A stretch of DNA of 34,875 nucleotides from assembly GCA_026982275.1 (NCBI GenBank), contig JALSHK010000006.1:1-34875 (forward strand), given 5' to 3'. Below are positions 1-30,339 of the stretch, one piece after another; position 1 is the stretch's first letter, and each line of letters begins with the position of its first letter. The notes beneath the pieces were generated by a model that made no database searches, was not told where the DNA came from, and was given only the letters and a program-made list of their open reading frames with translations. The DNA comes from Paracoccaceae bacterium (lineage in GTDB: Bacteria; Pseudomonadota; Alphaproteobacteria; Rhodobacterales; Rhodobacteraceae). The translations under genes were made by a program, and so were the position numbers.

Positions 1-659
1 GCGGTGTTTTCCCGCAGCGTTTTCAGCAGGTAATAGGCAAAAACCGAATGACCGTCAAAGCCGTCATCCGATACCGGCTCCAGCCCGCCGCTTGTCAGGG
101 CCTGCCGGCTGTTTTTGGCGAGGGCTTGCTGCATATAGGCATCGTTTTTGCCTATGCTTTGCGGGGCTTCACGATGTTTGAAAAAGTCACCTGAAAAACA
201 GGAATCAGAGATAACCAGCACATGCCGCGCGGCCAGGCGGGCCAGATAGGCCTTGATGGTTTCATTCAGGATCGAGCCATGCAGGGTGTCTTTGCGGGCG
301 TCCACCGGTGCCCAGGCTCCCATTTCAGAAAAGCTGTCAACGCTGCCATGACCGGCAAAATAGATCAGCAGCGAATCCGCCTCATCCAGCGCTTTTTCGC
401 CGTTTTTGCCATAAGCCCGAAAGGCACGGTCAATATTTTCGGCCGTAGCGGATTCGTTCCAAAGCTCTGTCACGCGGCTCTTGGCAAAGCCGTAATGGGT
501 GACCAGCACATCACGAAGGGTTTTGGCATCGTTAACGGCGGTTTTGAGCGGGTCGAAATGGATGTATTCATCTATGCCGATCACCAGCAAATGATAATCA
601 CCCCGCCCCGCACTGCGGGGAGGCTGTGGTGGTGGGACGGAGCGGGTGTCTCGGGTCAT
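1..659 (-). CDS. Caspase-like (peptidase C14 fold) cysteine protease; C-terminus runs off the window start
   Basis: This ORF is absent from the ORF track because it is open at the window edge. My reverse-strand translation from the ATG (complement of 657-659) reads MTRDTRSVPPPQPPRSAGRGDYHLLVIGIDEYIHFDPLKTAVNDAKTLRDVL...SLLIYFAGHGS...HVLVISDSCFSGDFF. This gives the caspase/metacaspase His motif (GHG) and Cys motif (D-S-C-x-S-G) in the canonical order. I saw no in-frame stop down to position 1. It lies 35 nt downstream of the preceding caspase-like gene on the same strand. Confidence 0.75.
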   Translation of the reverse strand, partial: MTRDTRSVPPPQPPRSAGRGDYHLLVIGIDEYIHFDPLKTAVNDAKTLRDVLVTHYGFAKSRVTELWNESATAENIDRAFRAYGKNGEKALDEADSLLIYFAGHGSVDSFSEMGAWAPVDARKDTLHGSILNETIKAYLARLAARHVLVISDSCFSGDFFKHREAPQSIGKNDAYMQQALAKNSRQALTSGGLEPVSDDGFDGHSVFAYYLLKTLRENT

Positions 660-694
660 TTTTCGGGTCCTGCTGAAATGTGCTTTGGTGGTTT

Positions 695-2161
695 TCAATT
701 TTCCTGGTTTTGAAGTCGCCGTTTTAGCTTTTCCAAGTTACTACATGCTGCGTCGCACCCCATGTCGCAGGCTTTAGCGTAGAGCTCCATAGCTTTGGCG
801 TTGCGCTGAGCGCTGGTTCCAGCTACTCCGAGGTTGTTCGCATACATCATTCCTAGGAAGTTGAATCCATCAGCATTCCCCATTTCGCAGGCTTTTAAAA
901 AACAATTAACTGCTTTGGATGCGAGTTCCGGATTTTTTGTCTGCTGGCAGTCTGTCATGTAGCGCCATCCTACCATCACACACGTATCTGCATCGCCTAA
1001 CTCGCAAGCCCTAGCATAAAACTCGTAGGCTTTTGAGACGTCGCTTTCTACCATTCCCAATCTGGATTCGTCGCACATCATCCCAGCCGATTGGCAACAT
1101 AATATATCGCCTAAGTCGCAACCTTTTGAGTAGAGCGCCAATGCTTTTTTGTGACGTAGGTATTTACTTTCATCAACGCCAATAATACCTTCATTGAATT
1201 CGTAAGCGGTCCCAAGAAAATAAAACCCGTCGGGATCACCGCTCTCGCAAGCTTCGGCATATTTGCGGACATGCGCATCCTCGCTCTCTTTGGCTTTAGA
1301 TATGATCTCAAGTAAAAGTGGCGAAAGGGTGGGTAGAAAATAATCTTGCCGCAGCACCTGCGGCACCTTTTTTACTATGGGCAGCGGGGCCGTATAGCGG
1401 GCGAGGTTGATGTCGACCCCGCCTTTCATTTCCAAAAACGGATCTTGGGCACTGTGTACTTCTTGCTGCGCGGTGAGCGGGGTTTTTGCCTGCACATAAT
1501 CCACCAGCTCTGACAGGCGGGTTTTGCCCATTTTAAGGGCATCGAGCATATGGGCGGTAAAAATGCCCTGTTCGCGGGAATCCCATTCAAAGGCGCGCTG
1601 GCCTTCGCTGCAGGCGCTTAGCACGGCTGTGGTGGCCAAGCCTTTGCTCTGGCTGGCGCAGTGAGACTGGATATCGCGGGCAGCGGCGGCATAATGCGCC
1701 TGCGCGCCGGCTTCCAGCTCCGGCAGGGCCGAATCACGCCCTATGCTGCGGTTTTGGCAGCAATCGAGAATCATCACGGTATTTCGCGCCCCGACCTGAC
1801 GCAGGGTTTCGTTAACAATCCCCAAAGGAATGGCGGTGCGGGCGAGGTCGGTATTGGTGGTGCTGATGCTGCAAAGGTAGCGGTGATTTCCATCTTGCGA
1901 GAAGCCGTGGCCCCAAAACCCGAAGATCAGGAGATCCAGATCTTTCAACAATAACAAGGCGTCCAGCTGGTTTTTTATGTAATCCCGCTCGACTCTCAAC
2001 CCGCCCTCAACACCGCATTGCATGAGGGTGATATCGTCAGAATCAAACCCGCATTCCGCTTCCAGTGCGGCCTTGAAGGCCGTTGCATCATTGCGCGCAT
2101 AGGACAGGGGTGCCAGCGGGTGGTAGGTGTTAATTCCGATTAATAAGGCGTGGCACTTCAT
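695..2161 (-). CDS. Caspase-like (C14) protease domain fused to C-terminal Sel1-like (SLR/TPR-type) repeats
   Basis: 488-aa ORF. The N-terminus reads MKCHALLIGINTYHP...ARNDA...LLIFGFWGHGF...VMILDCCQN, giving the His and Cys catalytic dyad motifs of the caspase fold. The C-terminal ~190 aa carries at least 4 Sel1-type repeats (YFLGTAYEFNEG...ALALYSKGCDLGD; AYEFYARACELGDADTCVMVGWRY; AVNCFLKACEMGNADGFNFLGMMYANNLGV...AMELYAKACDMGCDAACSNL). Confidence 0.85.
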   Translation of the reverse strand: MKCHALLIGINTYHPLAPLSYARNDATAFKAALEAECGFDSDDITLMQCGVEGGLRVERDYIKNQLDALLLLKDLDLLIFGFWGHGFSQDGNHRYLCSISTTNTDLARTAIPLGIVNETLRQVGARNTVMILDCCQNRSIGRDSALPELEAGAQAHYAAAARDIQSHCASQSKGLATTAVLSACSEGQRAFEWDSREQGIFTAHMLDALKMGKTRLSELVDYVQAKTPLTAQQEVHSAQDPFLEMKGGVDINLARYTAPLPIVKKVPQVLRQDYFLPTLSPLLLEIISKAKESEDAHVRKYAEACESGDPDGFYFLGTAYEFNEGIIGVDESKYLRHKKALALYSKGCDLGDILCCQSAGMMCDESRLGMVESDVSKAYEFYARACELGDADTCVMVGWRYMTDCQQTKNPELASKAVNCFLKACEMGNADGFNFLGMMYANNLGVAGTSAQRNAKAMELYAKACDMGCDAACSNLEKLKRRLQNQEN

Positions 2162-2377: not shown

Positions 2378-2866
2378 ATGTCTGGCAAGGATGACAGAGT
2401 TATGGGAATTGAAGGTTTGGCCAAGTATCTGAACTTGTCGAAATCAACGGTATACAAGCTGGCCCAGGAGGGCTCTTTGCCGAGTCAGAAGGTGGGAAAG
2501 CATTGGCGGTTTCGGCAGGAGACCGTAAACCGCTGGCTTGATGGCGAGCTGGCGGGCAAGTCGACGGTGGGGGTGGTTCGCCCCGCGCAGGCGCCAGAGC
2601 CGGCGGCAGCAGAGTCTGCAGGAGGGCTTTTGCTCGATAGCTTTGACAACCGTCTCACCAAGGCCCAAATCGAGAAGCTCAAGGGGCGCTGGATCGAAAC
2701 GGTTGACCAGTTTTTCTCCATTGCATCAACGCAGGCGGGCGCAGCGGGTCTGGCGGCATTGCTGGGCATGTCGAATGAGGAATTTTCGCCATGGCTGACG
2801 GCTTTTGAAGAAGATATTTTGTCGGACAAGGGTGCCGCAACAAAAGATGAAGGTGGTGGTGGGTGA
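2378..2866 (+). CDS. Excisionase/MerR-superfamily helix-turn-helix DNA-binding protein with an uncharacterised C-terminal domain
   Basis: 162-aa ORF. The N-terminus MGIEGLAKYLNLSKSTVYKLAQEGSLPSQKVGKHWRFRQETVNRWL matches the pattern of the excisionase-family HTH (HTH_17-like: LS.stvY.l...G.lP..k.G..wrF....i..Wl). An alternative start exists at the ATG at 2402. This is the first gene of the operon. Confidence 0.8.
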   Translation: MSGKDDRVMGIEGLAKYLNLSKSTVYKLAQEGSLPSQKVGKHWRFRQETVNRWLDGELAGKSTVGVVRPAQAPEPAAAESAGGLLLDSFDNRLTKAQIEKLKGRWIETVDQFFSIASTQAGAAGLAALLGMSNEEFSPWLTAFEEDILSDKGAATKDEGGGG

Positions 2867-4110
2867 AGATATCCGGGTTCACATCGCTATCTGCGCCCGG
2901 CGTTGGCCTGCTTTCTGATGGTCAGAAGGCTGTATTGGCCTCGTTGTGGGTCGAGAATGTAGAGGAGGCGGTGAGCCTCGTTGCTGCTGTCGAGCATGCG
3001 AATGTGGAATCGGAGGTTTTGGTGCCGATACGGGCCGCGTTGGCGCCGTTTATGCTGGCACTGCCTGAGGAGGAGCTTGCACGATGGGGGAGTGCGCTGC
3101 ATCCGCCTGCGCTCGGGTGTCGTGTGGAGCCGGAGACGATGGCTGCTTATGCCGCAACGGGCCGCGTGACGGCGGGGCGGGCTTCCAGCGGGATGTCCGA
3201 GGCACCGCTGCCGGTCAGTGTGCGGTTGATGGACCGGCTGGGACCGGTCAAGGCGCAGGGGGAGCGCGGCACATGTGTGGCGTTTACTCTGGTTGGGTTG
3301 CGCGAGTATTTGCTGGAAAAGCCGGTCCGGCTTAGCGAGCAGCATATGTATTGGGGTTGCAAGCAGCGCGACGGCTTTGAGGGCGAGGCTGGTTCAACCA
3401 TTCATGATGGCCTGTCCGCGCTGCGGGCTTTTGGTGTCTGCCCTGAAGCGGACTGGCCCTATAGTGATGCGGTGATTGCGCATAACGAGTCCCATGGGCC
3501 GGTGCCCGCTCAGGCTGCAAAATCAGCGAAGGGTTTCCGGATGCAATATACCACGGCCGTTTCGCGCAGCAATGTAGTTGATATCAAACAGGTTTTGGCC
3601 GGAGTTGATGCGCAAGAAGGCATGCCGGTGGCCATATCTGTTCTGGTTTTCAACAGCTGGCTGCATTCCTACGCTACACAGCAAACCGGAAAAATAACCA
3701 TGCCATTGCCCGGAGAAGAGCCGCAAGGCGGCCATGCGATGCTCGTGGTCGGGTATCAGGAAGATACATCTGCCCCCGGCGGGGGTTATCTGATTTTGCG
3801 CAATAGCTGGTCAAGCGAGTGGGCGGGCCATTCACCCGAAGCGCCGGGCCATGCGGTAATGCCCTATGGCTATTACGAGAGGTTTGCGATGGAGGCTTAT
3901 TCCGGGGAGGTTCGCGCGGTCGCTTCCCCGCAAGAGCTTGCAGAAACGGGGCTGCAATTTCTGACTTTGGAGGAGGATGCGCGTGACAAATACGGCAAGC
4001 TTTTGCGTGCGGGTTGCAAGGTTGTGGTCGACCCGCGAGATGGTGCCAGCTTTTTGAAGGCGTCTCCAGCGAATATTGCTGAATTTTCTACCCATGCCAA
4101 TGCTAACTAA
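2863..4110 (+). CDS. Papain-like (peptidase C1 family) cysteine protease, no signal peptide, with N- and C-terminal extensions
   Basis: 415-aa ORF whose GTG start overlaps the upstream stop (GTGA). The catalytic motifs are VKAQGERGTCVAFT (compare papain VKNQGSCGSCWAFS; Gln oxyanion plus Cys), GGHAMLVVGY (His) and LILRNSWSSEWAG (Asn-Ser-Trp). The N-terminus MKISGFTSLSAPGVGLLSDGQ is not hydrophobic. Confidence 0.85.
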   Translation: MKISGFTSLSAPGVGLLSDGQKAVLASLWVENVEEAVSLVAAVEHANVESEVLVPIRAALAPFMLALPEEELARWGSALHPPALGCRVEPETMAAYAATGRVTAGRASSGMSEAPLPVSVRLMDRLGPVKAQGERGTCVAFTLVGLREYLLEKPVRLSEQHMYWGCKQRDGFEGEAGSTIHDGLSALRAFGVCPEADWPYSDAVIAHNESHGPVPAQAAKSAKGFRMQYTTAVSRSNVVDIKQVLAGVDAQEGMPVAISVLVFNSWLHSYATQQTGKITMPLPGEEPQGGHAMLVVGYQEDTSAPGGGYLILRNSWSSEWAGHSPEAPGHAVMPYGYYERFAMEAYSGEVRAVASPQELAETGLQFLTLEEDARDKYGKLLRAGCKVVVDPRDGASFLKASPANIAEFSTHANAN

Positions 4111-4122
4111 ATCGGAGTCCTT

Positions 4123-4710
4123 ATGAAATCTCTCATTGACCTGATCCGGAAATTGCTCAGGCTCGGGCCTGCAAATCCGGCGCAAGCCAGCCTTGAAAAG
4201 CTAGAGCTGATCAAGCAGAGCAATATGGATAGCCTTGAGGCGCTGAAGGACCAGATCCGCGATCTGGTGGCGCGGATTGGCCAGAAAAAGGCCGAGCTTG
4301 ATGACACCAAGATCCCCGCGCTTCGCAATACGATCGAGCGTGAAATCGGCGAGCTTTTGAATGAAGTGGAGCGGTTTAGAACCCGCGAGGATTATATTGT
4401 CCGCAATATCACACGCATTTCCAAGCTGGTAGAGAAACTCCTGCAAAATCAGATTGCGCGGGAGCAGGGTGTATCTGAAGGCATAATAGAAGATACCACC
4501 CTTGATACCGAAGAAGTGTTGGCCAGCATGGAAGAGGAAGACAGGGCCATGGAGCAGATGGAAAGCCGCAGATACAGGCCGCTGAATGCTTTAGAGGCCG
4601 AACCGGCCCGCGAGGCGGAGATTTCACTCGAGGCGCGGTTGCGCGAAGTCGGTATTGGGGAGGACGCAGCTAGGCCCGGGAAAAAGCCGAATTTGGACGT
4701 CGAAGAATAG
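4123..4710 (+). CDS. Coiled-coil protein, probable ESCRT-III (Snf7/CHMP)-like subunit with C-terminal MIM1-like motif
   Basis: 195-aa ORF with a GGAG RBS 8 nt upstream. It appears all-helical, with a basic/neutral N-terminal half and a strongly acidic C-terminal half (IIEDTTLDTEEVLASMEEEDRAMEQME). The near-C-terminal EISLEARLREVG fits the MIM1 consensus (D/E)xxLxxRLxxL. It lies directly upstream of a clearer ESCRT-III homologue and a MIT-AAA ATPase. The CDS itself is confident; the family call is moderate. Confidence 0.55.
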   Translation: MKSLIDLIRKLLRLGPANPAQASLEKLELIKQSNMDSLEALKDQIRDLVARIGQKKAELDDTKIPALRNTIEREIGELLNEVERFRTREDYIVRNITRISKLVEKLLQNQIAREQGVSEGIIEDTTLDTEEVLASMEEEDRAMEQMESRRYRPLNALEAEPAREAEISLEARLREVGIGEDAARPGKKPNLDVEE

Positions 4711-4743
4711 GCAACAAACATTGCGCAACGGGAGGATAATGAA

Positions 4744-5388
4744 ATGGCATTTAATAAAATTTTCAAAAGTCAGAAAGATCGGGTCCGGGAAGAAAAACGC
4801 AAAATTCTCCGTGCCACTAATCAGTTACAACGGGGTATTGACCAATGTAATCGAAAGGCCGATTTTTTCAGGGCTGAAATGGAAAAATCCCTCAAGCTTG
4901 CAAAGAAATACGCGGCTGAGGGCAATCGTGATATGGCCCGGAGTATTGCTAATAAAATCAGGTCTCACAAAATTCGCATTGCGAAAGTGGAAATGAATGC
5001 CGCTGTGATGGATAAGCGAAAGCTGCAGGTGGATATGGCCGGCACCCAAAAGGAATTTACCGAAGCCATCGGCCAGTTGAACGAGCTGGTTAAATTAGAC
5101 CCGAATGCCTTTATGGATGTTGTGGACGATGAAGCAAAACTGGCCGAGGACCAAACCGAAATCGATACGTTATGGGAGCAGCTTTACACGCAAGACATGG
5201 CAGAGGTGGAATTTGCCGGTGGGCCGATTGAAAGTGTTGACGAGATTCTGAGCAATTTGGAGGCGGAGGTCAGTGCGGAAATTGGCGGAACCGTGTCTGA
5301 GACCGGACAGCGTGACCGGGAGGCGCAGCTTAGCAAGATCAATGCGGGCATAGAAAATATCGAAAAGCTGATGGAGAAAAACAAGTGA
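4744..5388 (+). CDS. ESCRT-III (Snf7/Vps2/CHMP family)-like protein
   Basis: 214-aa ORF with a GGAGGA RBS 7 nt upstream. MAFNKIFKSQKDRVREEKRKILRATNQLQRGIDQCNRKADFFRAEMEKSLKLAKKYAAEGNRDMARSIANKIRSHKIRIAK aligns by eye with the Vps2/CHMP2 alpha1-alpha2 hairpin (FGK..tpqE.lr...R.l.R..ReleRe..kle..ekk...eiKk.AkkGn...Ak.lAkdlvr.rk). The acidic distal part, with VDEILSNLEAEVSAEIG, resembles the CHMP alpha5 region (DEIVNKVLDEIGVDL). Confidence 0.7.
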   Translation: MAFNKIFKSQKDRVREEKRKILRATNQLQRGIDQCNRKADFFRAEMEKSLKLAKKYAAEGNRDMARSIANKIRSHKIRIAKVEMNAAVMDKRKLQVDMAGTQKEFTEAIGQLNELVKLDPNAFMDVVDDEAKLAEDQTEIDTLWEQLYTQDMAEVEFAGGPIESVDEILSNLEAEVSAEIGGTVSETGQRDREAQLSKINAGIENIEKLMEKNK

Positions 5389-6488
5389 CTTTGTTGACCG
5401 ACAAAAAGGCCGAGCAGGAAAAGCTTGCCGAAATCGCGTTGCAAAGCAAGGATTTCAAGGCCGCTTTCTTGCATACTGCATATGCGGCCAAGCTGGCATA
5501 CAAGCTGGCCGCAGCAACGGAGGGGGTTGTTTCCCAAGCCTATATAAAAAATGGTGGAAGGCTGGCCGATGCGGCCGGAAAATTGCAAAAAGCCAGTAAA
5601 AACCAGCAGGCCGAGCAGGAGAGAACACTGGAGGGGACGGATAAAGACGCGGTGCAAACCAGCCAGTGGCAGATGACCAGAAAGCCGGATGTGCGCCTTG
5701 ATGATGTGGCGGGGTTGACGGAGGTGAAGGCCGCTTTGCAACAGGATGCGATTTTGCCCTTCGAGTATCCCGAAGTTTATGAGCGCTACAAGCTGGCTGG
5801 CGGCGGCGGGGTGCTTATGTATGGCCCGCCCGGCACGGGTAAAACCTTTATTGCCAAGGCGGTAGCCGGGGAGCTGAAGGCTGCGTTTTTCTCGGTGGAT
5901 CCTTCGCAGATCAAGGGAAAATATGTGGGCGAGACCGAAAAGAACATGCGCGCCCTTTTTGAAGCGGCGAGACAGCACGAGCGGGCGGTTATCTTCTTTG
6001 ACGAGGTGCATTCGCTTTTGCCCAGGCAGCGTGGCACCGGGGTAAATGCTGTCACGATGTTTTTAACCATGATGGACGGGATCACCAGTGATAGCGGTAA
6101 AACCATTTTGCTGGTTCTCGGGGCGACGAATCATCCCGATATGATGGACCCTGCTACTTTGCGTTCCGGACGCTTCAGTAAGCACATTTATGTGGGGCTG
6201 CCCGATATCGAGGCCCGGGAGTCCATCGCGAAATATTGCTTTCGGGATGTTCCATTGGACGGCGGGTTTCCATTTGCGGAGGCGGCCGCACGTATGCAGG
6301 GGTTCAGCGGGGCCGATGTGGCAGCGGTTTGTAAGAAAACAAAAGCCGCTGTGGCTATGCGGGATATTCGGGAATCCGCCAATGGGCGGGTATCTGGCGA
6401 GGATTTTTTCGAGGCTATATCGGGTTTTACACCAACGGTAACCGAAAAAGATGTGGCTAAATTCAATGAGTGGCGCGGCAAAAGCTAA
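5385..6488 (+). CDS. Vps4-like AAA+ ATPase (classical/meiotic clade) with N-terminal MIT-like helical domain
   Basis: 367-aa ORF with a GTG start in a GTGA overlap. Motifs seen are Walker A GVLMYGPPGTGKTFIAKAVA, Walker B VIFFDEVHSLL, sensor-1 VLGATNHPD, and an Arg-finger region LRSGRFSKHIYVGLP (compare Vps4 RRFEKRIYIPLP). The ~75-aa N-terminal helical region (LAEIALQSKDFKAAFLHTAYAAKLAYKLAAA...) is consistent with a MIT 3-helix bundle. The AAA+ call is very confident; the Vps4/MIT call is moderate. Confidence 0.85.
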   Translation: MTLLTDKKAEQEKLAEIALQSKDFKAAFLHTAYAAKLAYKLAAATEGVVSQAYIKNGGRLADAAGKLQKASKNQQAEQERTLEGTDKDAVQTSQWQMTRKPDVRLDDVAGLTEVKAALQQDAILPFEYPEVYERYKLAGGGGVLMYGPPGTGKTFIAKAVAGELKAAFFSVDPSQIKGKYVGETEKNMRALFEAARQHERAVIFFDEVHSLLPRQRGTGVNAVTMFLTMMDGITSDSGKTILLVLGATNHPDMMDPATLRSGRFSKHIYVGLPDIEARESIAKYCFRDVPLDGGFPFAEAAARMQGFSGADVAAVCKKTKAAVAMRDIRESANGRVSGEDFFEAISGFTPTVTEKDVAKFNEWRGKS

Positions 6489-9400
6489 GTGCGGTAAAGC
6501 TGCGAGTGACGAGTATTTCTATGGATGAAGACGGCAAAACACAAGGCGATGACCCGGGGATTGTAGATCACGGCAAAGAAATGCCGGCCAATTCGGAGGA
6601 CTCCGCACAAGCTGATGATACCCCGACCGATGATGTTTTGGAGGGAGACGTGCCTGATGTCACGGTGCCGCTTGAAGATGCGCAGGACGATGGATTTGAT
6701 GATGAATATATGGAAGATGAATCCTGGGAAGATGATTCATATTGGGATTTTGACAGGCTTTCTGCGGATATCGACCAGTTCACCGGGCGCTCGGAGTGGA
6801 GTTTGAATTTGGAGCCAAGCCCGGCAGACCGGGAAATGCTGGCGCGCATTATATCCGGGACTGGCCTTTGTATTGTGCCCGATATGCACGACAAAGAGCG
6901 AGAATTACTGATGAGGTGGCTCTCCAGCATGGCCGAAAGCCAGCAAATATTCTGCGCCCGTCCGCTGGAAGGGGCCAGAACGTCGGAAATGGTACTGCTC
7001 TCGCAAATGGTTGCGTGGCACAATGACCAACAAAGCACGCGCGCGTCTGCCTGCTATGTAGTTGATCCGCACGAGCATCCAATTTTTATCAGCGATACCG
7101 AAATGGCAAATTTCCTTGCGGAGCTGAAAAAAGCCGGCATTTGCATTTTGCTTTTCTCGCGTGGCAACAGCCACGCAAGCTTGAAAAACAGAGGCGCAAC
7201 ACTGTGGCGTCCGGATTTCTACAGCTATTGGTGGCGCTGCTTTACCGAAGCGTTTTTCGAGGTGGAAAGCCCGGATGTGGTCGAAGGCGAGTTTGAGCGT
7301 GCGGCGGGGCTTTTGGAAGCCAAGCGCCCGAGCTTGCTAGGCCGCGCCCCGACGCGGGCGAAAATATTGCGGCTCCGGCGGTTGATTTTGGAGTCTCCGG
7401 AGATTCCGGATCGGGAGAGTGATCTTGGGGATGCGATCCAGCAGGTGATGGATGCGTTTGAAGCGCGCCCGAGCGCTGATGGCTCCCGCCTGCGAGAAGC
7501 CCATAACGAGGTGTTCCGGATTTCACCGGACCAGATGGCACAAATGCGCGAGAAAGGAGGAGGAAAGGCGCTTCTGGAGCCCGAAGCCACGGCGCTGTTT
7601 GTGGCATGGAACTGTTTGAAAAACAACGAAGGCAAGCCCGTACAGTTGATGGATTTCGAAGAGGTTTTCTCCATCCAGCTTCGGAATATGGAGGCTGAAC
7701 AAAAAGCAATTATGGCCAATGCCGCGCGGGAAAATCCGGGCGGGAAAAACAAAAAAAAGGACCGCCCGAGCTTTGATGCAGGGCAATATTTGCGGCATCG
7801 TTTATTTGCCAGCCAGGGCGATATGATGCTCGAATATATCGGATTGGACGTAAATTCCTGCCCGGTAAAAGGTAAGCAGATCACGTTTCGCCATCCGGAC
7901 CTGCTTGACCATCTGGAAGATATTTTCAACCGCCGCCGTGCCAATTATGCGGCCGCCCAGATAGACCGGTTTTTTGTAGATCAGAAAATATGGGAAGACG
8001 GGCAAAGCCGCCTCGGGGCTTATGCCAATATGCTTATGGTTCTGAAATTCAGACAATACGGGCCGATCTCGGACCTCAATGTGGCCAAGCGCTGCGTTGA
8101 TGAAATTTTGAAAGATTTCAAGCCGGGTCCGGATGAGAGCCAGAGCCACAAAGCCGGTAGCAGGTCGGCGGAGAGGCGTCGCTACAAGGTGCTGGAAAAA
8201 CGCTATCTGCGGGTGGTCGAGTTTCTCATGCTCTGGTTTGACGAGCAACAAAAGCTTGCGCCGGATGCGGTGGAAGAGACGGCCCGCGCATTCAAGGATT
8301 TTGTAACCTTGCTGTCAAAGCAGTTGATGAAGCGCGGGGGATGGCTGGATTTCGTATTTCTGTTTATGCATATTGCGCGGCATCGGCCCGAACTGATTGA
8401 TGTGTCGGCTATATTGCGTATGGTAAACGAGCGTGCGCCTTTTGCGACCAAGTGGGACATCCTCAGCATTGTGGAAACCGAGGCTCGCAAGCAGACTGGC
8501 AACGAGCTGCAATACCGGATTTTCCGGTTTTTGGTCTCCGATATTGCCAAAACCGTGGATGACAAGCGGCATCTGGGTGTTTTTCGAGATGCGTTTCTTG
8601 CGGGGCTGGCGCTCAGGGTTATTCCGGCGGGGGTGCGGCGGTTAAAAGCAGTGGATTATGAAAAAGGCAGCCTGCAATTATCGGATGCGATGCTGGAACA
8701 GATCATAACAGCGAAAGATGGAATAACGGATCTCGTTGCGGTAATGACAGCGCCGCGGGTTCGCAACTATTTGCAGAACCTTTTGAACCGGAAACGTAGA
8801 AACGAAGTTTTGGACTGGTTTACCTTGCAGGAATTCATGCGCATCGAAGAAATGTGTTATGCGATGCAGATCAAGCCGTTAGAGCGTGCAAAAGACAGTA
8901 AATCCGATCAGAAATCCCACGAGGATTTTCATGAAGACCTTTACCGCGCCTATATGGAAGAGGTGCGGGAAATGACCACGCTGGTGGAGGGTCTGCCGGT
9001 TCTTAGCCGCGTCAATACGCGCAATACTGGCGGGAGCGCTGTTGGGACGGCACGGGCGCGGGTAGTTAAAATGAAGCGTGGCGGATCGGATTTGATTATT
9101 CCGGTATTACGCAAACATTTTGAAAAATCAAAGCAGCTGGACAGCCTGAATAGCCTGAACCTGCTGGTTTTTGTGGAATTGCATGGCGTATTGCTCAGCG
9201 TGGGGCGCACGGAGATTGCCGGGGAGATACTGGAGGCCCTTAACGTCGCGAAGGTCGCAGCTTCAGGGGCTGAGGAGCAGCGCGAGATTCGCGGCTTCAG
9301 CAAAGCGTTTGACGCCCGCATTAAGGCGGCAAAGCTTGTGCAGAAACGAGGGTTGGTGGCCATGGTGAAAAATACGCGACACGAGTTGAAAACGGGGAAG

Positions 9401-9505
9401 GTCTCGACGGAATATTGCACGGCTTTCGAGGCATATTTGCGAAAAAGATACGGATATATTGACAATTTTACGCTTCGAGGAACAAGCGTCAGGAGGACAG
9501 AATGA
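6470..9505 (+). CDS. Large hypothetical protein (about 1000 aa) with a highly acidic N-terminal region; no motif recognised
   Basis: 1011-aa ORF from the GTG at 6470, which overlaps the Vps4-like gene by 19 nt. An alternative ATG at 6521 (MDEDGKTQGDD...) would give 994 aa. The N-terminal ~90 aa are D/E-rich (DDTPTDDVLEGDVPDVTVPLEDAQDDGFDDEYMEDESWEDDSYWDFD), and the rest looks mainly helical. I found no Walker A or other catalytic motif. Confidence 0.75.
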   Translation: MARQKLSAVKLRVTSISMDEDGKTQGDDPGIVDHGKEMPANSEDSAQADDTPTDDVLEGDVPDVTVPLEDAQDDGFDDEYMEDESWEDDSYWDFDRLSADIDQFTGRSEWSLNLEPSPADREMLARIISGTGLCIVPDMHDKERELLMRWLSSMAESQQIFCARPLEGARTSEMVLLSQMVAWHNDQQSTRASACYVVDPHEHPIFISDTEMANFLAELKKAGICILLFSRGNSHASLKNRGATLWRPDFYSYWWRCFTEAFFEVESPDVVEGEFERAAGLLEAKRPSLLGRAPTRAKILRLRRLILESPEIPDRESDLGDAIQQVMDAFEARPSADGSRLREAHNEVFRISPDQMAQMREKGGGKALLEPEATALFVAWNCLKNNEGKPVQLMDFEEVFSIQLRNMEAEQKAIMANAARENPGGKNKKKDRPSFDAGQYLRHRLFASQGDMMLEYIGLDVNSCPVKGKQITFRHPDLLDHLEDIFNRRRANYAAAQIDRFFVDQKIWEDGQSRLGAYANMLMVLKFRQYGPISDLNVAKRCVDEILKDFKPGPDESQSHKAGSRSAERRRYKVLEKRYLRVVEFLMLWFDEQQKLAPDAVEETARAFKDFVTLLSKQLMKRGGWLDFVFLFMHIARHRPELIDVSAILRMVNERAPFATKWDILSIVETEARKQTGNELQYRIFRFLVSDIAKTVDDKRHLGVFRDAFLAGLALRVIPAGVRRLKAVDYEKGSLQLSDAMLEQIITAKDGITDLVAVMTAPRVRNYLQNLLNRKRRNEVLDWFTLQEFMRIEEMCYAMQIKPLERAKDSKSDQKSHEDFHEDLYRAYMEEVREMTTLVEGLPVLSRVNTRNTGGSAVGTARARVVKMKRGGSDLIIPVLRKHFEKSKQLDSLNSLNLLVFVELHGVLLSVGRTEIAGEILEALNVAKVAASGAEEQREIRGFSKAFDARIKAAKLVQKRGLVAMVKNTRHELKTGKVSTEYCTAFEAYLRKRYGYIDNFTLRGTSVRRTE

Positions 9506-11988
9506 AGATTGCAGAACCATTGGACCGTCTTATTACTGCTGTATCTGAAGAAAGCAAAATGGGGCGTAATGAAGTGTGCTTCAAAATGAGCGGTAATAAG
9601 CGTGGCACGGTAAGTGTGGCACCTCATTTTGCACAAAAAAAGGGATTACTTTCAGTTTTTACGCGCGGCAAAGGACCAACTCGTTACATCCGTATTGCCA
9701 CAGGGCGGACGGTGGATATTTTAGATATGGATGTGGATTGCCAGGATGTTCAATCACAGGTTGAATATCGGATTACACTCCGGTTCGATGCTCAGACACC
9801 TGAAAAGGACAACTGGAACGCTCTGCAAAAAATGGTCGAGGTGTTTGCAGATACCATTCCGGATTTGTCCTTGCGGGGTAGAGATGACCCGGATTCCGGG
9901 CCGTCTCGCCGCTTCAGAGATGAAATGCACCAGTGGCTGGCGACCCGTTACCGCAGTGGCGACCGGATCAAAACATCCGAAGAGTGGCGTCTGGCGCAGG
10001 CCTTACAGATAGACGCGTATATCGCGCAAGAATACGGGCTTGATATCAAGGTCAAGCTCACCATCAAAACCCTGTCCCAAAAGCGCCTTGGGCCGGTTGA
10101 GGCAAAGGTTGATACCAATGCCTGCGATAGCAAGATTGCAATAAGCTTGCCGCTGAAGGTTGGATGCGAGCTTATGGACGGCAAGAAAGACCTGTTTGAA
10201 GCCGTAACTTTTTCTGAATCGGATTTGCAGGCTTTGATCGAGCGCCGCGTGGACAGGTTTATTCGGGATCAGGTCACCTTGCAGCAATTTCGCTTTGAAA
10301 ATGCGTGGCTCGACGATATGCGCGAGAGCATCGAAAAGGATTTGCAGGCCAAAGGGCGCACGATTACCAGCTTTATTGTCGAGCACTCGCCGGCATCGGC
10401 CGATTATGAGATGGGGCCGATCAATGTAAAAACCGAGCCGGTTGCGTTTATTCCATCGGGTTGGGATGAGGGTAACACGATCAATTTCATTTCCAATGCC
10501 CAGGTTCACGTTAACAATGCGGCTATCCACGAACCTCTGTATGAAGCCAGTGATTTCAATAAAATGAAGCCCTACCTTCATGATTGGTTCACCAAGGCTT
10601 TGAATACCGCAATTCATGATTGCCTGCACCGGATCCATGACAAAAACGTGGGCTACGCGACTTTGCTGACCGATTGGGACAGCACTTTCCAGAAAAATAT
10701 CCGGACCATGCTGGAAGGCATGGCAAAAGAGGCCGGGCTGGTTGCGGATGCGATTATTTCCAATCCCGAGCGCCCGGAGGTCAAGCTTCCTCAAGGGGTC
10801 TGGATTCATATTCCGGTGGAAAATAGCGAAAGGCAGATGTTCTCGGGTAGCGAGGGGGGGATTGTGGCGAAAAAATTTGCCTCCATGACCCCGTCTATGA
10901 ATTTCGAGCTAGCCATCGATGCCCATGTGAAAATCAGGAATTTTGCCGATATCAAGGATATCCTGAATCAGACAACCGATGCACTGGCTTATATCAGAGA
11001 GCAATTGATAGAACCCGCCGTGCGGCATGTGTGTCAGGATACCGATACGGTACGATATTACAGTGCTTTTGAATTTGTGCCCGCTGGCGAGACCGGAATT
11101 TCGTTTACGGAAATGGTCGAGCGTAAAGTTCGGGAGGCGCTGATAGCCAAAAATATTCAGCTTCTTTCCTTGCGGTTGCGGCGCGCCGATGAACATATTT
11201 GGGAGAAATATACCCGCATTACCGGCAATCCGCCACAGCGGGTCGAGTTTTACATCAAACCTTTGGTTCGGGGTGCCGGAATACAGGATGTCTCCAGTCG
11301 GGTGTCGGTGAGCTTTGATCTGAATATAACGGGCATGTGCGAGGATGGCGCCGGTTGGGGGCAATTTGTGCCGCTGATCTGGCCGGATGAAGTGGAAGAA
11401 TCACGATCATATTATCAACCGGTATATGACAAGGTGAAGGATACAATTTCGGAGAAGTTTCACGCCGGAGATATAGATTCTATAAAATATGCCGAATTCA
11501 GTGCCGAAGATAAAAAAGAATTCGAGCTTCTGCTCAACCGCTATGTAAATGATATTCTTGACAAGAATTTCGGTTTACGGGGCGAGGCGATTTCTATCAA
11601 GCGGGATCTGAGTGATCAGGAGCAGATTTACATCGAGAATTTCCAACATACGATAGAACACAAGCGGCGGCTGATGCAGGCAGAGCAGGCGAAAGATATC
11701 CACCAGCTCGATGCGGACGTTAAAGTTAATGCTGTGCAACAAGGGGCACGCATCACCGATGCCCGTGAAGAGTCAGATACCCGCATGCCCGGATATGATT
11801 TTGGCCAGCCTGGTGACACCCTGAAAATCGAGGATTTCGATAGTCTTGATTTTAAGGGCCGCGAGCCAGGGAAAGGCCTGCCATCGCATGACGGTGCGAA
11901 GGAAACCCCGCCGCCGGAGCCCGAAGCCCCTTCAGCGCCCGAGGGAGAGGTTTATGAAATGCCCCCTGAAGATAAAGGAAAACCCTAA
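9502..11988 (+). CDS. Large hypothetical protein (828 aa) with a Pro/Glu-rich C-terminal tail
   Basis: A strong AGGAGGA RBS precedes the ATG, which overlaps the upstream stop (ATGA). The sequence looks mixed alpha/beta, with the C-terminal tail KETPPPEPEAPSAPEGEVYEMPPEDKGKP. No motif recognised. Confidence 0.75.
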   Translation: MKIAEPLDRLITAVSEESKMGRNEVCFKMSGNKRGTVSVAPHFAQKKGLLSVFTRGKGPTRYIRIATGRTVDILDMDVDCQDVQSQVEYRITLRFDAQTPEKDNWNALQKMVEVFADTIPDLSLRGRDDPDSGPSRRFRDEMHQWLATRYRSGDRIKTSEEWRLAQALQIDAYIAQEYGLDIKVKLTIKTLSQKRLGPVEAKVDTNACDSKIAISLPLKVGCELMDGKKDLFEAVTFSESDLQALIERRVDRFIRDQVTLQQFRFENAWLDDMRESIEKDLQAKGRTITSFIVEHSPASADYEMGPINVKTEPVAFIPSGWDEGNTINFISNAQVHVNNAAIHEPLYEASDFNKMKPYLHDWFTKALNTAIHDCLHRIHDKNVGYATLLTDWDSTFQKNIRTMLEGMAKEAGLVADAIISNPERPEVKLPQGVWIHIPVENSERQMFSGSEGGIVAKKFASMTPSMNFELAIDAHVKIRNFADIKDILNQTTDALAYIREQLIEPAVRHVCQDTDTVRYYSAFEFVPAGETGISFTEMVERKVREALIAKNIQLLSLRLRRADEHIWEKYTRITGNPPQRVEFYIKPLVRGAGIQDVSSRVSVSFDLNITGMCEDGAGWGQFVPLIWPDEVEESRSYYQPVYDKVKDTISEKFHAGDIDSIKYAEFSAEDKKEFELLLNRYVNDILDKNFGLRGEAISIKRDLSDQEQIYIENFQHTIEHKRRLMQAEQAKDIHQLDADVKVNAVQQGARITDAREESDTRMPGYDFGQPGDTLKIEDFDSLDFKGREPGKGLPSHDGAKETPPPEPEAPSAPEGEVYEMPPEDKGKP

Positions 11989-11990
11989 CT

Positions 11991-12776
11991 ATGGTCACCG
12001 GTATTCATTGGAAAGACGGCTTTGATGAAGCGTCGAACCTGCTGGCCGGTATTCTTGACTTTGCGATTACAAGTCTGGAAGCCCCGGTAGAGGGCAAGGT
12101 CTTTTTCCCGACGCTGGAGGCTTTGATTACGCCAATGCTTGATTGCAGCGCCGAGGAGCGGCAGGCCGTTATGAAAACGGCCGGGCTAAGCAGCGCGCCC
12201 CATCGGGCTTTTTTAAGCGTTCCCGGCCTCGGTATGGGGCTGGTGCGTGAAAAGACAGAGAGCAAAAAAACGGCGCGGGCAAATGCTATTCCGCAAGAGG
12301 TTTTGTGGGCCATTGCCGGTGCCGGCGTGGCGGGCACACAAGGCCAGCGCGCGCGGGCAATACGGGTTTCAGGCTGGGTGCAGTCCAGGTTTTTGTTATC
12401 CGGGGCGCGTCTTGTCACGGATCTTGCCGATTTGCGCACGCTCTGGACCATAATTGCCACTGTGGCGCGAAGCCAGAAACTGGCCGCGCATCCCGGTATT
12501 GCGGAGCTGGAAAGCATGGCAACGCTGATGGCGGCTAAACATCCGGTGCCGCAGATGGTCGACCAGCTGGTTTGCTGCGAAATTGCCCGTGCGCTCATGG
12601 TCGGGCGCGGGGTGCCGTCTGCGCACCCGCTGATGGCGTGTCCGTTGATTGCCGCGCCGCGCTACGGGCTTGAATACAGCCCGGAGAACGCGCAGTCCAA
12701 AGGCGAGCCGGGCGCAACGTTCCAGAAGGTTCCAACCGATTTGGAACCCTATATTTTCTTTCGGAAAGAGGTTTGA
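11991..12776 (+). CDS. Hypothetical protein (261 aa)
   Basis: The ATG lies 2 nt after the upstream stop, and the next gene starts 3 nt after this gene's stop. The protein is Ala/Gly-rich with no motif recognised. A 197-aa antisense ORF (12005-12598) also exists, but the tight spacing with both neighbours favours the plus strand. Confidence 0.6.
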   Translation: MVTGIHWKDGFDEASNLLAGILDFAITSLEAPVEGKVFFPTLEALITPMLDCSAEERQAVMKTAGLSSAPHRAFLSVPGLGMGLVREKTESKKTARANAIPQEVLWAIAGAGVAGTQGQRARAIRVSGWVQSRFLLSGARLVTDLADLRTLWTIIATVARSQKLAAHPGIAELESMATLMAAKHPVPQMVDQLVCCEIARALMVGRGVPSAHPLMACPLIAAPRYGLEYSPENAQSKGEPGATFQKVPTDLEPYIFFRKEV

Positions 12777-12779
12777 CCC

Positions 12780-13865
12780 ATGTTCAATACTGCGGCCCTT
12801 TCAAAGTTTTTTACCAAGCATAAATCTACCCTGAAGCGGCTGGAAAAGGTTCGGGGCCACCTTGAAAGCCGGATTTACAACGGGGAAATCGCGATCAATG
12901 CGATATTTCTTGCGGCGCTGACCGATGTGCCTTGTTTGCTTTTTGGCCCGCCCGGTGTGGCCAAATCCAAACTGATCCGCAATTTTTGCGAAATCACAGG
13001 GGTTTCCAATGCAGAAGCGGCGGAAGAGCGTAAATATTTCGAGTATTTGCTCACTCCGTTTACCGAGCCGACCGAGCTTTTCGGGTCTTTCAGACTGCAA
13101 AAAACTGAGACCGGAGAGCAACAACTTATGCGGGTGGAAACCGGCATGTTGCATAATTGCGAGGTGGCATTTCTTGACGAGGTGTTTAACGGGTCAAGTG
13201 CGATTTTGAACAGCTTGCTGGCCCTGATTAACGAAAAGCGATTTCATGACCGTGGCGAGATTAAAAAGAGCCGGCTAAAGCTGGTTTTCGGGGCGACAAA
13301 TGACCTGCCGACCAGTGAAAGCCTCCGGGCTGTTTTCGATCGGTTTGTGGTGCGGGCCTATATGGACAACGTGGAGCCGGAAGCGGTTGAATACCGGAAA
13401 TATTTTGATAGTGCGTTCAAGGCGCAGCGCAACTTCACACCTAAAGAATGTGATTATGAGCTGCTGGACGATATCCAGATATTGCGGGATGACTATCTGG
13501 CTCTGGAAAAAGGGAATGACCCCAAAAAAAGCCTTTTCGATTTTGATTCCGAAGAGGGACGGAAATTTCTGGAAAATCTTGGTTATATTGTGGATAATTG
13601 CCGTGGTGGTCTGGGGCGCGCGAACGCATACGGAAGTTTTTCAAACCGTCGCGTTTTTCAAATGCTGCGTGCCCTCACCATGCAGCGGCTCATGCGGGCG
13701 GCGCGGCAGGGTAGCGTGATCGGAGGGGGGCCGCCTCTTATTCGTGAAGATTACAGTATAATTGTGGCGCATTTTCTGGATGTTAAGGAGCCGCTCCCGA
13801 GCACCGAGGTCGACAAACTTCTTGATCTCCCTAACGGTCAGGTGATTGCAGGAGCCAAATCTTGA
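12780..13865 (+). CDS. RavA/MoxR-family AAA+ ATPase
   Basis: 361-aa ORF that aligns by eye along the E. coli RavA AAA+ module. LESRIYNGEIAINAIFLAALTDVPCLLFGPPGVAKSKLIRNF matches [42 protein letters not shown] (Walker A). FEYLLTPFTEPTELFGS matches FEYLMTRFSTPEEVFGP. CEVAFLDEVFNGSSAILNSLLALINEKRFHDRG matches [32 protein letters not shown] (Walker B). LVFGATNDLP matches LLVAASNELP. Confidence 0.85.
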   Translation: MFNTAALSKFFTKHKSTLKRLEKVRGHLESRIYNGEIAINAIFLAALTDVPCLLFGPPGVAKSKLIRNFCEITGVSNAEAAEERKYFEYLLTPFTEPTELFGSFRLQKTETGEQQLMRVETGMLHNCEVAFLDEVFNGSSAILNSLLALINEKRFHDRGEIKKSRLKLVFGATNDLPTSESLRAVFDRFVVRAYMDNVEPEAVEYRKYFDSAFKAQRNFTPKECDYELLDDIQILRDDYLALEKGNDPKKSLFDFDSEEGRKFLENLGYIVDNCRGGLGRANAYGSFSNRRVFQMLRALTMQRLMRAARQGSVIGGGPPLIREDYSIIVAHFLDVKEPLPSTEVDKLLDLPNGQVIAGAKS

Positions 13866-15388
13866 AACACGAGGTTATGGGAGCGACATTCTGGACACCG
13901 GTTATTGCGCAAAGGCGCAGGGCGGGGGCGGCGAATTTTGACCTTGAGATGGCCATATTGCGGCTCCTGCACTCGAATGGATATGGCGCGCCGATAGAAA
14001 CGGTTTTTGATTTTGCGGCGTGGCTCCAAAGGAAAGGCAGTGCAGGCCAATATTGGGAAAATGCGTTCCAGCAGCTCTTTTCCGGCATGGATTTACGGAA
14101 AATTCGCAGTTCCGTCTCGATGGTGGAGCGGCGAATGCGAGAGAATCCGTTTCAAGCTGTCCGGTTGTTTTTATTGCCGGTAGTCCAGCGTGTATTGGCC
14201 AAGACAGAAAAAAACATTCTGCTTTCGAGGAGTGATAAAACCAGCCACCATAACAAAGGTGATTATCAGAAATATAGTGATGCGTTTCAGGCAACGCTGG
14301 CAACGCTGTTGCCCGAAAGCAACGAGCCCCCTGCAACCAAGGTCAATGATGAAAGCACCGTAGCGTGGCGGCGGGCCATGATCCTGCGGCTGATTCAATA
14401 TACTCATCTCGAGGATTTGTCGGAAGACCCGGGCGGTCCGTGCCTTCCGGATATGCTGGCGGCAGAGCTGTTTCTGGCGGCCGAACGATTGCAGGTTGCA
14501 TCAAGGCCGGACAAAGCCATTCCACGGCTTGCCCGAGAAGGGACCGTGCGACGTAGTTCCCGCTACCAGCAAGACGGCATTGCGGGAATACGCCACGCCT
14601 CTCCCGGAGAGGACCCGTCATCAATGTTGCAGCATCAGATGGTGAATGCATTCGAAGTGCTGGTAGAGCAGATCGAAAACGAAGGGTTTATTGCGTATGA
14701 CCGCCCGCCGCCTTTGCCGGAGAAACGCTGTTTTATGTTTGCGGCTCTGGCGGCTGACATGGCTGAAGGCCGTGGGCTGAGCCTGCTGCGCGCCGCATGG
14801 TGGCTGGCCTGCCAATGGGCTGAAATGATACTGTGCGAGCAAGATTCCAGGGTTGATTTTGCCTGGTTGCAAACCACAAACGGCTTTTCCGGGCGAGGGA
14901 GTTTTGTGCGCTCCCCGGAAAAATTCATGCGGATGCGTCCGGGCGATACCGGCGCGCGCTATCTTGCACAATGTGAGGGGATTGGTGCGCCTTTCAGGGC
15001 AGGACGGCAGAAAACAGCCCTCTCCGAAGGGCGAACCAGACCCCTTTGTCCGGACAATTTGGTGGGTTTATTGAGAGATGAAGGCCTTCAGGTGATAGGA
15101 GATGGAGGGATGCAGGTTGCGGCCATGATTTTGTCGGTTCAGGAGGCAACCGGAGACAGGGCAGATGAACATACGAGCGTGTGGCGCGATGAAATTACCG
15201 GACAGGGAGGCGAAATGCCGTTGGTTCTGTCTGTCACTATTAACGCTGCACAAGGGAGGCACAGGCTGGCTTTCGGGGCGGAAGAGCCGGTGCTGGTCTG
15301 TGATGATTTCGAGGAAGCCGCGCAGCAAGCTGTGAAAATTGCCAACCGGTTGATAGAAGAAATGATGAAAGTTATCCGCAATGAGTAA
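13862..15388 (+). CDS. Hypothetical protein (508 aa) in the position of a ViaA/vWA partner of the RavA-like ATPase; no canonical MIDAS motif seen
   Basis: A TTG start in a TTGA overlap has an AGGAG RBS 7 nt upstream; an alternative ATG is at 13877. The size is similar to ViaA (483 aa), but I could not find a DxSxS MIDAS motif. The segment KRCFMFAALAADMAEGRG sits where a vWA beta1-MIDAS would be expected. The vWA assignment is speculative. Confidence 0.65.
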   Translation: MKHEVMGATFWTPVIAQRRRAGAANFDLEMAILRLLHSNGYGAPIETVFDFAAWLQRKGSAGQYWENAFQQLFSGMDLRKIRSSVSMVERRMRENPFQAVRLFLLPVVQRVLAKTEKNILLSRSDKTSHHNKGDYQKYSDAFQATLATLLPESNEPPATKVNDESTVAWRRAMILRLIQYTHLEDLSEDPGGPCLPDMLAAELFLAAERLQVASRPDKAIPRLAREGTVRRSSRYQQDGIAGIRHASPGEDPSSMLQHQMVNAFEVLVEQIENEGFIAYDRPPPLPEKRCFMFAALAADMAEGRGLSLLRAAWWLACQWAEMILCEQDSRVDFAWLQTTNGFSGRGSFVRSPEKFMRMRPGDTGARYLAQCEGIGAPFRAGRQKTALSEGRTRPLCPDNLVGLLRDEGLQVIGDGGMQVAAMILSVQEATGDRADEHTSVWRDEITGQGGEMPLVLSVTINAAQGRHRLAFGAEEPVLVCDDFEEAAQQAVKIANRLIEEMMKVIRNE

Positions 15389-30226: not shown

Positions 30227-30317
30227 CGGAGCCTCCGTAAGTATTCGGGTGCAGGATGCGGGGGCGGGGGCGGTTTCGCAAGGGGTATTGGTTCCGAAGA
30301 AGCAAAATACCCGCGTT

Positions 30318-30339
30318 GGTGGTGGGCTATAACACCACC
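30318..30339 (-). terminator. Possible stem-loop terminator immediately after trmL stop
   Basis: ggtggtg-ggctataa-caccacc forms a perfect 7-bp GC-rich stem with an 8-nt loop, directly abutting the trmL TAG. On the minus strand a short T-run (TATTTTG) follows only after about 10 nt, so this is not a textbook intrinsic terminator. Confidence 0.3.

Follow-up and report, generated by a model that had tools for sequence, protein, structure and literature searches.

We analyzed a 34,875-nt stretch of DNA from a Paracoccaceae bacterium (GenBank assembly GCA_026982275.1, contig JALSHK010000006.1), hereafter referred to as the window, which in this text always means the whole stretch. Our subject is a set of three consecutive genes within it, encoding two small proteins, ORF1 and ORF2 (for open reading frame), and an AAA+ ATPase, which together we call the trio (Table 1). 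Ribosome-binding sites precede ORF1 (GGAG) and ORF2 (GGGAGG), and the GTG start of the ATPase gene overlaps the TGA stop of ORF2 by 4 nt in the sequence GTGA at 5385-5388. A first-pass annotation, made from the letters of the sequence alone, had described these genes as a pair of Snf7-type ESCRT-III proteins (ESCRT, endosomal sorting complexes that are required for transport) followed by a MIT-domain, Vps4-like ATPase in a bacterium. Its trio coordinates and the translational coupling were confirmed by the ORF listing and the sequence. The assignment to a bacterial host is likewise borne out, because the right end of the window carries genes for a proteobacterial-type Rieske protein (222.6 bits), cytochrome b, ThiQ and TrmL, together with one for a succinate-semialdehyde dehydrogenase.

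Table 1. Genes and sequence features at the trio locus, in window coordinates. MIM1, MIT-interacting motif 1; pLDDT, predicted local distance difference test.
Feature	Position	Strand	Description
Second caspase-like gene, truncated by the window edge	1-698	-	jackhmmer match with caspase domain, E=5e-56
Caspase-like peptidase (Peptidase_C14) with Sel1 repeats	695-2161	-	Divergent from the operon; Pfam C14 60.2 bits, Sel1 44.3 bits
HTH_17/excisionase-type DNA-binding protein	2378-2866	+	First operon gene; Pfam HTH_17 52.5 bits
Papain-like cysteine peptidase (Peptidase_C1)	2863-4110	+	Directly 5′ of ORF1, same operon; Pfam 48.2 bits
ORF1	4123-4710	+	195 aa, ATG start (ORF listing)
ORF1 MIM1-like motif SLEARLREV	4624-4650	+	Residues 168-176; local helix pLDDT ~89
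ORF2	4744-5388	+	214 aa, ATG start; Snf7-family ESCRT-III protein by profile match
ORF2 N-terminal hydrophobic/basic motif MAFNKIFKS	4744-4770	+	Family consensus MxxFxxLFKS; candidate membrane-insertion helix
ORF2 C-terminal amphipathic helix INAGIENIEKLMEKNK	5332-5385	+	Consensus INxGxxxLxxLLxxxK at extreme C-terminus; candidate ATPase-binding motif
ATPase	5385-6488	+	367 aa, GTG start; Vps4-like single-cassette classical AAA+
ATPase N-terminal three-helix bundle (predicted)	5385-5636	+	Residues 1-84, then disordered linker; conserved in 45 homologs
ATPase catalytic core	5823-6005	+	Walker A GPPGTGKT (147-154), pore loop 1 KYVG (179-182), Walker B DE (206-207)
Three conserved proteins, ~1000/828/261 aa	6470-12776	+	No Pfam, NCBIfam or PADLOC match; follow the ATPase in this lineage only
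bpMoxR-type AAA+ ATPase	12780-13865	+	Pfam bpMoxR 159.5 bits, AAA_5 74.4 bits

ORF2 matches the Pfam Snf7 family (PF03357) at 27.4 bits against a cut-off of 27.3, over profile positions 2-163 of 171. When its relatives were scanned singly, Snf7 was matched by 21 of 24 (best E=8.5e-11), and PspA_IM30 (PF04012) by neither ORF2 nor any of the 24. A single-sequence search of the PDB with ORF2 was uninformative and a family profile was required; the profile built from eight family members retrieved yeast Snf7 (E=1e-7), then CHMP3 (0.008), and no PspA/Vipp1 chain. Based on these Pfam, family-member and PDB-profile matches to Snf7, we classify ORF2 as a genuine Snf7-type ESCRT-III protein. The first-pass annotation was therefore right to call it Snf7-type and not PspA-type, and its by-eye likeness to Vps2/CHMP2 is superseded by a nearer one to Snf7/CHMP4 in the PDB family-profile search. 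Close homologs are scarce, with just four among 5.8 billion proteins; distant members were recovered from loci found via ATPase homologs.

The charge distribution of ORF2 is strongly polarized, with an N-terminal half of net charge +15 (isoelectric point, pI, 10.6) and a C-terminal half of -19 (pI 4.05). The same division had been noticed in both small proteins, and it is present but weaker in ORF1 (+3, pI 9.3; -13, pI 4.3). At the N-terminus of ORF2, residues M1 and F7 of the hydrophobic/basic motif never vary in two family alignments, where K8 and S9 are also conserved; the motif presumably serves at the membrane as the N-terminal anchor of Snf7 does. At the other end of the protein, the core pattern [RK][LIVM]xx[LIVM] occurs in 62% of ORF2-family tails, compared to 18% of shuffled tails.

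The ATPase matches Pfam AAA (127.8 bits) and Vps4_C (29.2 bits, cut-off 21.3), with AAA_lid_3 below threshold. In control scans Vps4_C was matched by spastin (30.0 bits), katanin (33.8) and CdvC (29.6) and not by p97-D1, p97-D2, PAN or FtsH. We found more than 100 full-length bacterial homologs at 40-55% identity. An alignment of 45 sequences shows a conserved N-terminal helical domain of ~75 residues, followed by a linker that varies and, at the C-terminus, an F/YxxW helix; G147-T154, K179/V181/G182, D206/E207, the sensor-1 residue N249, R260 and R263 vary little or not at all, and at the position of the Vps4 beta-domain insertion, which binds Vta1, there is only a short loop. Judged by these motifs, the protein is a catalytically intact classical AAA ATPase of the single-ring type. 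An AlphaFold2 (AF2) model (pLDDT 86.9) gives an N-terminal bundle, a disordered linker and an AAA fold. The bundle is modeled as helices 2-20, 24-44 and 48-84 (pLDDT 85-95), with residues 80-90 falling below 50.

As with ORF2, a single-sequence PDB search with the ATPase N-terminus was uninformative and required a family profile. The profile of residues 1-125 placed 16 Vps4/CdvC/SKD1 chains first, above all Cdc48 and FtsH chains, and aligned to VPS4B through the MIT domain (E=2.6e-6), the bulk of its score coming from the linker and the first AAA strand. We also placed the ATPase in neighbor-joining (NJ) trees of 239-265 columns containing reference AAA proteins and real VAT and Cdc48-like sequences. 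The bacterial family is monophyletic with 97-100% bootstrap support and joins the Vps4/CdvC/katanin/spastin (meiotic) clade with 95%, compared to 0% for Cdc48-D2 and 9-10% for CdvC alone. Provisionally, this makes the family sister to the meiotic clade, apart from Cdc48, PAN and FtsH, and therefore not a Vps4 ortholog; the earlier likening of the ATPase to the Vps4/katanin clade finds provisional support in this rough tree. By its architecture, C-terminal helix and gene context, and by the provisional phylogeny, the ATPase is Vps4-like and belongs to a distinct bacterial family. The family also contains tandem-AAA members of 528-796 aa (L011 9291-18700; L030 1870-4179; L032 9347-11656; P0077), and the one tested, P0077, nests inside the single-AAA family in the NJ tree.

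Sequence searches of Pfam, NCBIfam and the PDB gave no match for ORF1. When 1.84 billion representatives were searched exhaustively by profile, a family of 70 clusters emerged, all of ~200 aa. The AF2 model, built from a 67-sequence alignment (pLDDT 79.6, hairpin ~97), contains helices at 2-12, 19-61, 65-114 and 119-148, then an acidic disordered stretch and a short helix at 169-175, a pattern that we take to be that of an open ESCRT-III subunit as seen in the structures of CHMP1B, Snf7 and PspA. The short helix carries the MIM1-like motif, for which we scored the pattern (D/E)xxLxxRLxxL(K/R). The full pattern is present in 36% of ORF1-family tails and its core in 78%, compared to 2% and 14% of shuffled tails (a 5- to 18-fold enrichment); typical C-termini with such motifs are ALEQRLKELEKE and DLDQRLKDLDVE. 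The copy in the window is internal and not at the terminus as in the family, and its R172 and E175 are invariant in a family alignment. On predicted topology and the MIM1-like motif alone, ORF1 is ESCRT-III-like and plausibly a divergent ESCRT-III member.

To survey the trio across bacteria, we compared the window with its close relatives (four loci, L001 and L003-L005) and with 24 loci from a genome scan using an N-terminal ATPase profile. The hosts of the scan loci are Planctomycetota (Thermoguttaceae, Phycisphaeraceae), Lentisphaeria, Victivallaceae, Kiritimatiellia and Desulfobacteraceae, as well as Roseomonas, Hydrogenedentota, Dehalococcoidia and Chloroflexi metagenome-assembled genomes (MAGs). 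The three genes lie in the same order on the same strand in the window, the four close relatives and about 20 distant loci, and this order, often with translational coupling, is kept in ~25 loci from at least 8 bacterial lineages, namely Planctomycetota, Lentisphaeria, Kiritimatiellia, Desulfobacteraceae, Roseomonas, Hydrogenedentota, Dehalococcoidia and the proteobacterium of the window. When all ORFs were scanned with hidden Markov models, 25 of the 30 distinct loci proved to have a Snf7-family gene directly 5′ of the ATPase gene, the two often overlapping by 4 nt (a count that takes in two Dehalococcoidia ORFs matching Pfam Snf7 unaided), and an ORF1-family gene 5′ of the Snf7 gene in 21. 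Given this same-order, same-strand recurrence in relatives, the arrangement is far beyond chance, and the three genes have been inherited together, their order fixed, across many bacterial phyla.

Some loci depart from the simple trio. The Dehalococcoidia loci (L022 8121-11116; L024 1466-4535) each contain two family ATPases, and a divergent ORF that overlaps the start of the second by 4 nt scores 32.1 and 20.9 bits, respectively, against Pfam Snf7; no ORF1 relative was detected in either locus. In the Lentisphaeria locus L011, two ATPases occur alongside four Snf7 paralogs.

The trio has recurrent partners. Among the genes adjoining it we found Peptidase_C1 in 13 loci, caspases in 10, a multi-transmembrane (multi-TM) protein in 17 and a DUF4384 protein in 12, and the contigs of distant loci, with Snf7 directly 5′ of the ATPase, have many caspase genes around. 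In the close relatives the order is a divergent caspase gene, HTH_17, Peptidase_C1, ORF1, Snf7, ATPase, the ~1000/830/261-aa genes, bpMoxR and a ~510-aa gene. The module outlined by the first-pass annotation was thus correct at its core and incomplete, having missed the proteases, the multi-TM and DUF4384 proteins and the MoxR block. The multi-TM protein is ~280 aa long, with 31% identity between L001 and L014. Its gene and the DUF4384 gene usually come right after the ATPase (L001 3138-5581, reverse strand; L014 11593-13983, forward strand). Both are outside the window; in L001, the nearest relative with sufficient flanking sequence, they are located past the caspase gene, in a stretch equivalent to what lies left of the window edge.

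We hypothesize, with a probability of roughly 60%, that the trio is a bacterial counterpart of the ESCRT-III/Vps4 machine. By means of its basic hairpin and the MxxFxxLFKS motif, ORF2 would attach to the cytoplasmic membrane on the inner face and polymerize there, and ORF1 would co-polymerize with it as a divergent ESCRT-III-like subunit, similar to the B-type/A-type two-subunit systems of Asgard archaea. A hexamer of the ATPase may then dock by its N-terminal three-helix domain on the MIM1-like helices at the C-termini of ORF1 and ORF2 and thread subunits through the KYVG-loop pore, so that the polymer is remodeled or recycled. Because the trio almost always accompanies C1/caspase-like peptidases, multi-TM and DUF4384 proteins, the polymer could belong, as one arm, to a conflict or programmed-cell-death system under protease control. 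Two roles can be envisaged for it: a membrane-targeting effector, freed when a peptidase cuts off the acidic autoinhibitory tail, or a repair device that curbs self-inflicted membrane damage. In the lineage of the window, the module would additionally be joined to a bpMoxR-centered gene block. The wider proposal that this is an ancient and dispersed bacterial ESCRT-III and Vps4-type machine, not recently imported and wired to caspase/papain-like proteases, is one we put forward tentatively, as a possibility.

Several results weigh against the trio being such a machine, and many of them concern the ATPase. Pfam MIT (PF04212) matched none of 17 ATPase N-termini, the controls scoring 39.9 bits (CdvC) and 84-87 bits (Vps4). 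A profile of the N-domain only retrieved Sel1 repeats from the PDB (8sxq, E=1e-5) and no MIT domain, and hhalign comparison with three MIT domains gave a colinear alignment at 8% probability. MIT membership by sequence is thus rejected in three tests: the N-domain is MIT-like in predicted topology, size and position only and Sel1/TPR-like in sequence, so that what remains of the MIT N-terminus originally proposed is a predicted three-helix bundle. The arginine-finger motif, LRSGRF, has the VAT/Cdc48 form, not that of the RRRFE-type second region of homology. This region of the ATPase, RSGRFSKHIYVGLP, aligns with LRAGRFDKLIYIPPPD of VAT and had been cited as a Vps4/katanin-like C-terminal motif.

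Further, p97-D2 scores as high as katanin against the AAA core and lid of the ATPase. Across the lid and C-terminal helix p97-D2 aligns at 70-81 bits and katanin at 80-82, and since p97-D2 aligns through the helix too, the helix is weakened as a sole marker of the meiotic clade. Foldseek with the full ATPase model returned Cdc48-D2, NVL, Rpt and FIGNL1 inseparably, all at E~1e-21, and the NCBIfam scores (CDC48 195 bits against a cut-off of 803, CdvC 181, PAN 179, FtsH 172) are all far below cut-off. As for the tree, its distances are saturated and the method is rough, and several of the tree and control references were validated by Pfam architecture only.

Other negative results concern ORF1: neither the protein nor any of 67 relatives matches Snf7 or PspA. 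A deeper family profile retrieved coiled-coil noise only from the PDB and no chain of PspA or Vipp1, and hhalign of the ORF1 family against the Snf7 family gave long, colinear and non-significant alignments (E 9e-4 to 1.5e-3, probability 17-47%). In Foldseek the ORF1 model reached no significant E-value (best 0.17), and its top 50 matches include Vipp1 and CHMP2A amid unrelated hairpins. Of the ESCRT-III pair proposed at first, ORF2 stands and ORF1 does not find comparable support. With regard to the conflict-system role, no PADLOC defense model matches ORF1 or ORF2, and caspases are absent from the Thermoguttaceae loci.

These results leave room for other explanations. The peptidase genes that flank the trio in most loci would also be expected if the ATPase were mainly an unfoldase or regulator of the neighboring cysteine peptidases, on the model of defense pairs of an AAA protein and a protease such as IetAS, with the helical proteins as its substrates, adaptors or scaffolds and no membrane-remodeling polymer. 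PADLOC IetA models do match the ATPase (E=7e-31), and its AAA core is as close to the Cdc48-D2 unfoldases as to katanin. However, against the IetA equivalog (NF042959) the ATPase reaches 104 bits where the cut-off is 510, and the PADLOC match reflects generic AAA similarity. Moreover, what steadily accompanies the ATPase is the Snf7 gene (25/30 loci) and no peptidase, caspases are missing from the Thermoguttaceae loci, and ORF2 is by its matches truly homologous to Snf7 and has a hydrophobic motif conserved at its N-terminus. We therefore regard a role centered on the peptidases as unlikely.

We consider it similarly improbable that the trio is a housekeeping system for envelope stress or membrane maintenance, comparable to PspA/Vipp1, which happens to sit in variable islands and whose association with proteases is incidental. 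The bacterial ESCRT-III superfamily is known for membrane repair (PMC8281802, PMC7619361), and the conserved multi-TM protein that accompanies the trio in 17 loci would suit a function of this kind. Nevertheless, no member of the trio matches PspA_IM30, and the families are rare and patchy (no more than five close homologs of ORF2 in 5.8 billion proteins, and for ORF1 70 clusters in 1.84 billion), which is unusual for housekeeping genes. Across phyla, and with the gene order shuffled, the trio is repeatedly linked to C1, caspase and DUF4384 genes, which argues for function over accident. A purely superficial resemblance of generic coiled coils, in a locus recently transferred or contaminating from an archaeon or eukaryote, would account for the bare margin of ORF2 over the Snf7 cut-off (27.4 vs 27.3 bits) and the coiled-coil noise matched by ORF1, but is largely refuted and very improbable in view of the strong family-level Snf7 evidence, the proteobacterial housekeeping genes in the window, relatives from many bacterial MAGs, and an ATPase family that is monophyletic and deep, with 40-55% identity among bacteria, and so probably no recent import.

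Returning to the trio as an ESCRT-III/Vps4-type machine, the closest known arrangements are the archaeal CdvB-CdvC and the Asgard ESCRT-IIIB/IIIA and Vps4 systems. These likewise comprise one or more Snf7-family genes adjoining a single-cassette AAA ATPase with a three-helix N-domain, a flexible linker and a Vps4_C-type helix, and two small subunits with C-terminal MIM1-like helices. The trio differs from them in its bacterial host, in an ATPase provisionally sister to the Vps4/katanin clade and in an N-domain that is not MIT by sequence; it has no CdvA, ESCRT-I/II or ubiquitin component, and its partners are instead peptidases, multi-TM and DUF4384 proteins. PspA and Vipp1 (IM30) belong to the same ESCRT-III superfamily, are bacterial and act at membranes. 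In contrast to them, ORF2 matches Snf7, the ATPase is a classical AAA protein and not the sigma-54 activator PspF, and the trio is without a PspB/C, LiaI or Toastrack partner. Cdc48/p97/VAT proteins have tandem cassettes and a substrate N-domain, whereas the ATPase in the window has one cassette in 367 aa.

Vps4-like AAA+ genes have been reported in Planctomycetes, Verrucomicrobia and other bacteria and attributed to transfer, in operons where snf7 is replaced by a gene for a TPR+6TM protein; the same study notes occasional bacterial Snf7 homologs that have a signal peptide and a TM segment and lie beside ABC transporters (PMC11237479; mSystems 2024). The trio in the window differs from these systems in combining a cytoplasmic Snf7 protein, ORF1 and the ATPase with caspase/papain peptidases. 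Elsewhere, a Vps4-like ATPase is stated to appear absent from bacteria (PMC7619361), and recent reviews describe ESCRT-III/Vps4-type systems as absent from bacteria. The main survey of caspase/MoxR conflict systems (Kaur et al. 2020, PMC7159879) makes no mention of Snf7, Vps4, ESCRT or PspA. The trio is not described in PMC11237479, PMC7159879, PMC11188069 or PMC7619361, and we found no description of it in the literature searched, although an earlier mention elsewhere is possible. The MoxR-vWA-beta-propeller ternary systems are similar in that the window has a bpMoxR and large uncharacterized and TM proteins and that caspase effectors are typical of them. The likeness is through bpMoxR alone, and the MoxR block occurs with the trio in this lineage only.

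If the wider proposal of an ancient bacterial machine is right, the pairing of an AAA disassemblase with a Snf7 polymer would not be an archaeal invention, and the link of ESCRT-III to caspase cell death, or protease-triggered polymerization, would likewise be older than eukaryotes. A conserved bacterial trio with ESCRT logic would alter the reconstruction of ESCRT origin. In eukaryotes, ESCRT-III repairs gasdermin and MLKL pores downstream of caspases. The trio has in common with this setting an ESCRT-III/Vps4-type machinery and caspase-family proteases in a possible cell-death context, as a functional analogy only, and we detected no gasdermin homolog among the trio neighbors. Its constant company of proteases, membrane proteins and DUF4384 points to an undescribed type of membrane-acting bacterial conflict or cell-death system. 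With two small subunits and one ATPase, the trio would also provide a minimal, genetically tractable system for ESCRT-III mechanics.

Downstream of the ATPase, nine co-oriented genes occupy 6470-26346 on the forward strand of the window, encoding proteins of ~1000, 828 and 261 aa, bpMoxR, and proteins of 508, 698, 135 (TM), 376 (TM) and 2458 aa. Among the nine, bpMoxR alone has a family match apart from a faint Kelch match in the 2458-aa protein; no vWA or propeller domain was matched by Pfam in the 508-aa and 2458-aa proteins beyond that match. Synteny of the first six downstream genes, up to and including the 508-aa gene, is confined to L001 and L003-L005, the fetched loci ending there, and L003 has the start of a seventh; the MoxR block is specific to this lineage. 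The called start of the ~1000-aa ORF at 6470 overlaps the end of the ATPase gene by 19 nt. As its homologs are 994-999 aa long and start ~30 nt after the ATPase stop, the gene probably starts at an ATG near 6521.

Upstream, the tandem pair of caspase-like genes, one with Sel1 repeats, occupies 1-2161 on the reverse strand, divergent from the operon. A Sel1 resemblance is common to one of these caspase-like proteins and, by sequence, the N-domain of the ATPase. The HTH_17 gene is syntenic in 8 loci, and its product scores 61.4 bits against the NCBIfam MADS1-like model, under the cut-off of 80. In planctomycete loci, those of Thermoguttaceae and relatives, a protein of 140 aa is encoded between the ATPase and multi-TM genes (L014 11103-11525; also L010, L012, L017, L020 and L026). 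It has a weak iterative link to a portion of the C1-peptidase proteins (E=8e-5 for that of the window), with no pairwise similarity by BLASTP.

Three further candidates were considered and rejected. The ~280-aa neighbor does not qualify as a gasdermin-like partner, since this multi-TM protein is matched by no defense model of PADLOC or Pfam. An adaptor domain common to the HTH protein C-terminus and the C1 peptidase N-terminus found no match by BLASTP. EACC1, from a two-gene caspase system, consists of a TM domain and bears no relation to ORF1 or ORF2.

Finally, the succinate-semialdehyde dehydrogenase ORF (28751-30679, reverse strand) has an N-terminal extension of ~160 aa. This extension lies outside the NCBIfam match (residues 161-641), and the true start is probably further downstream than the one called.

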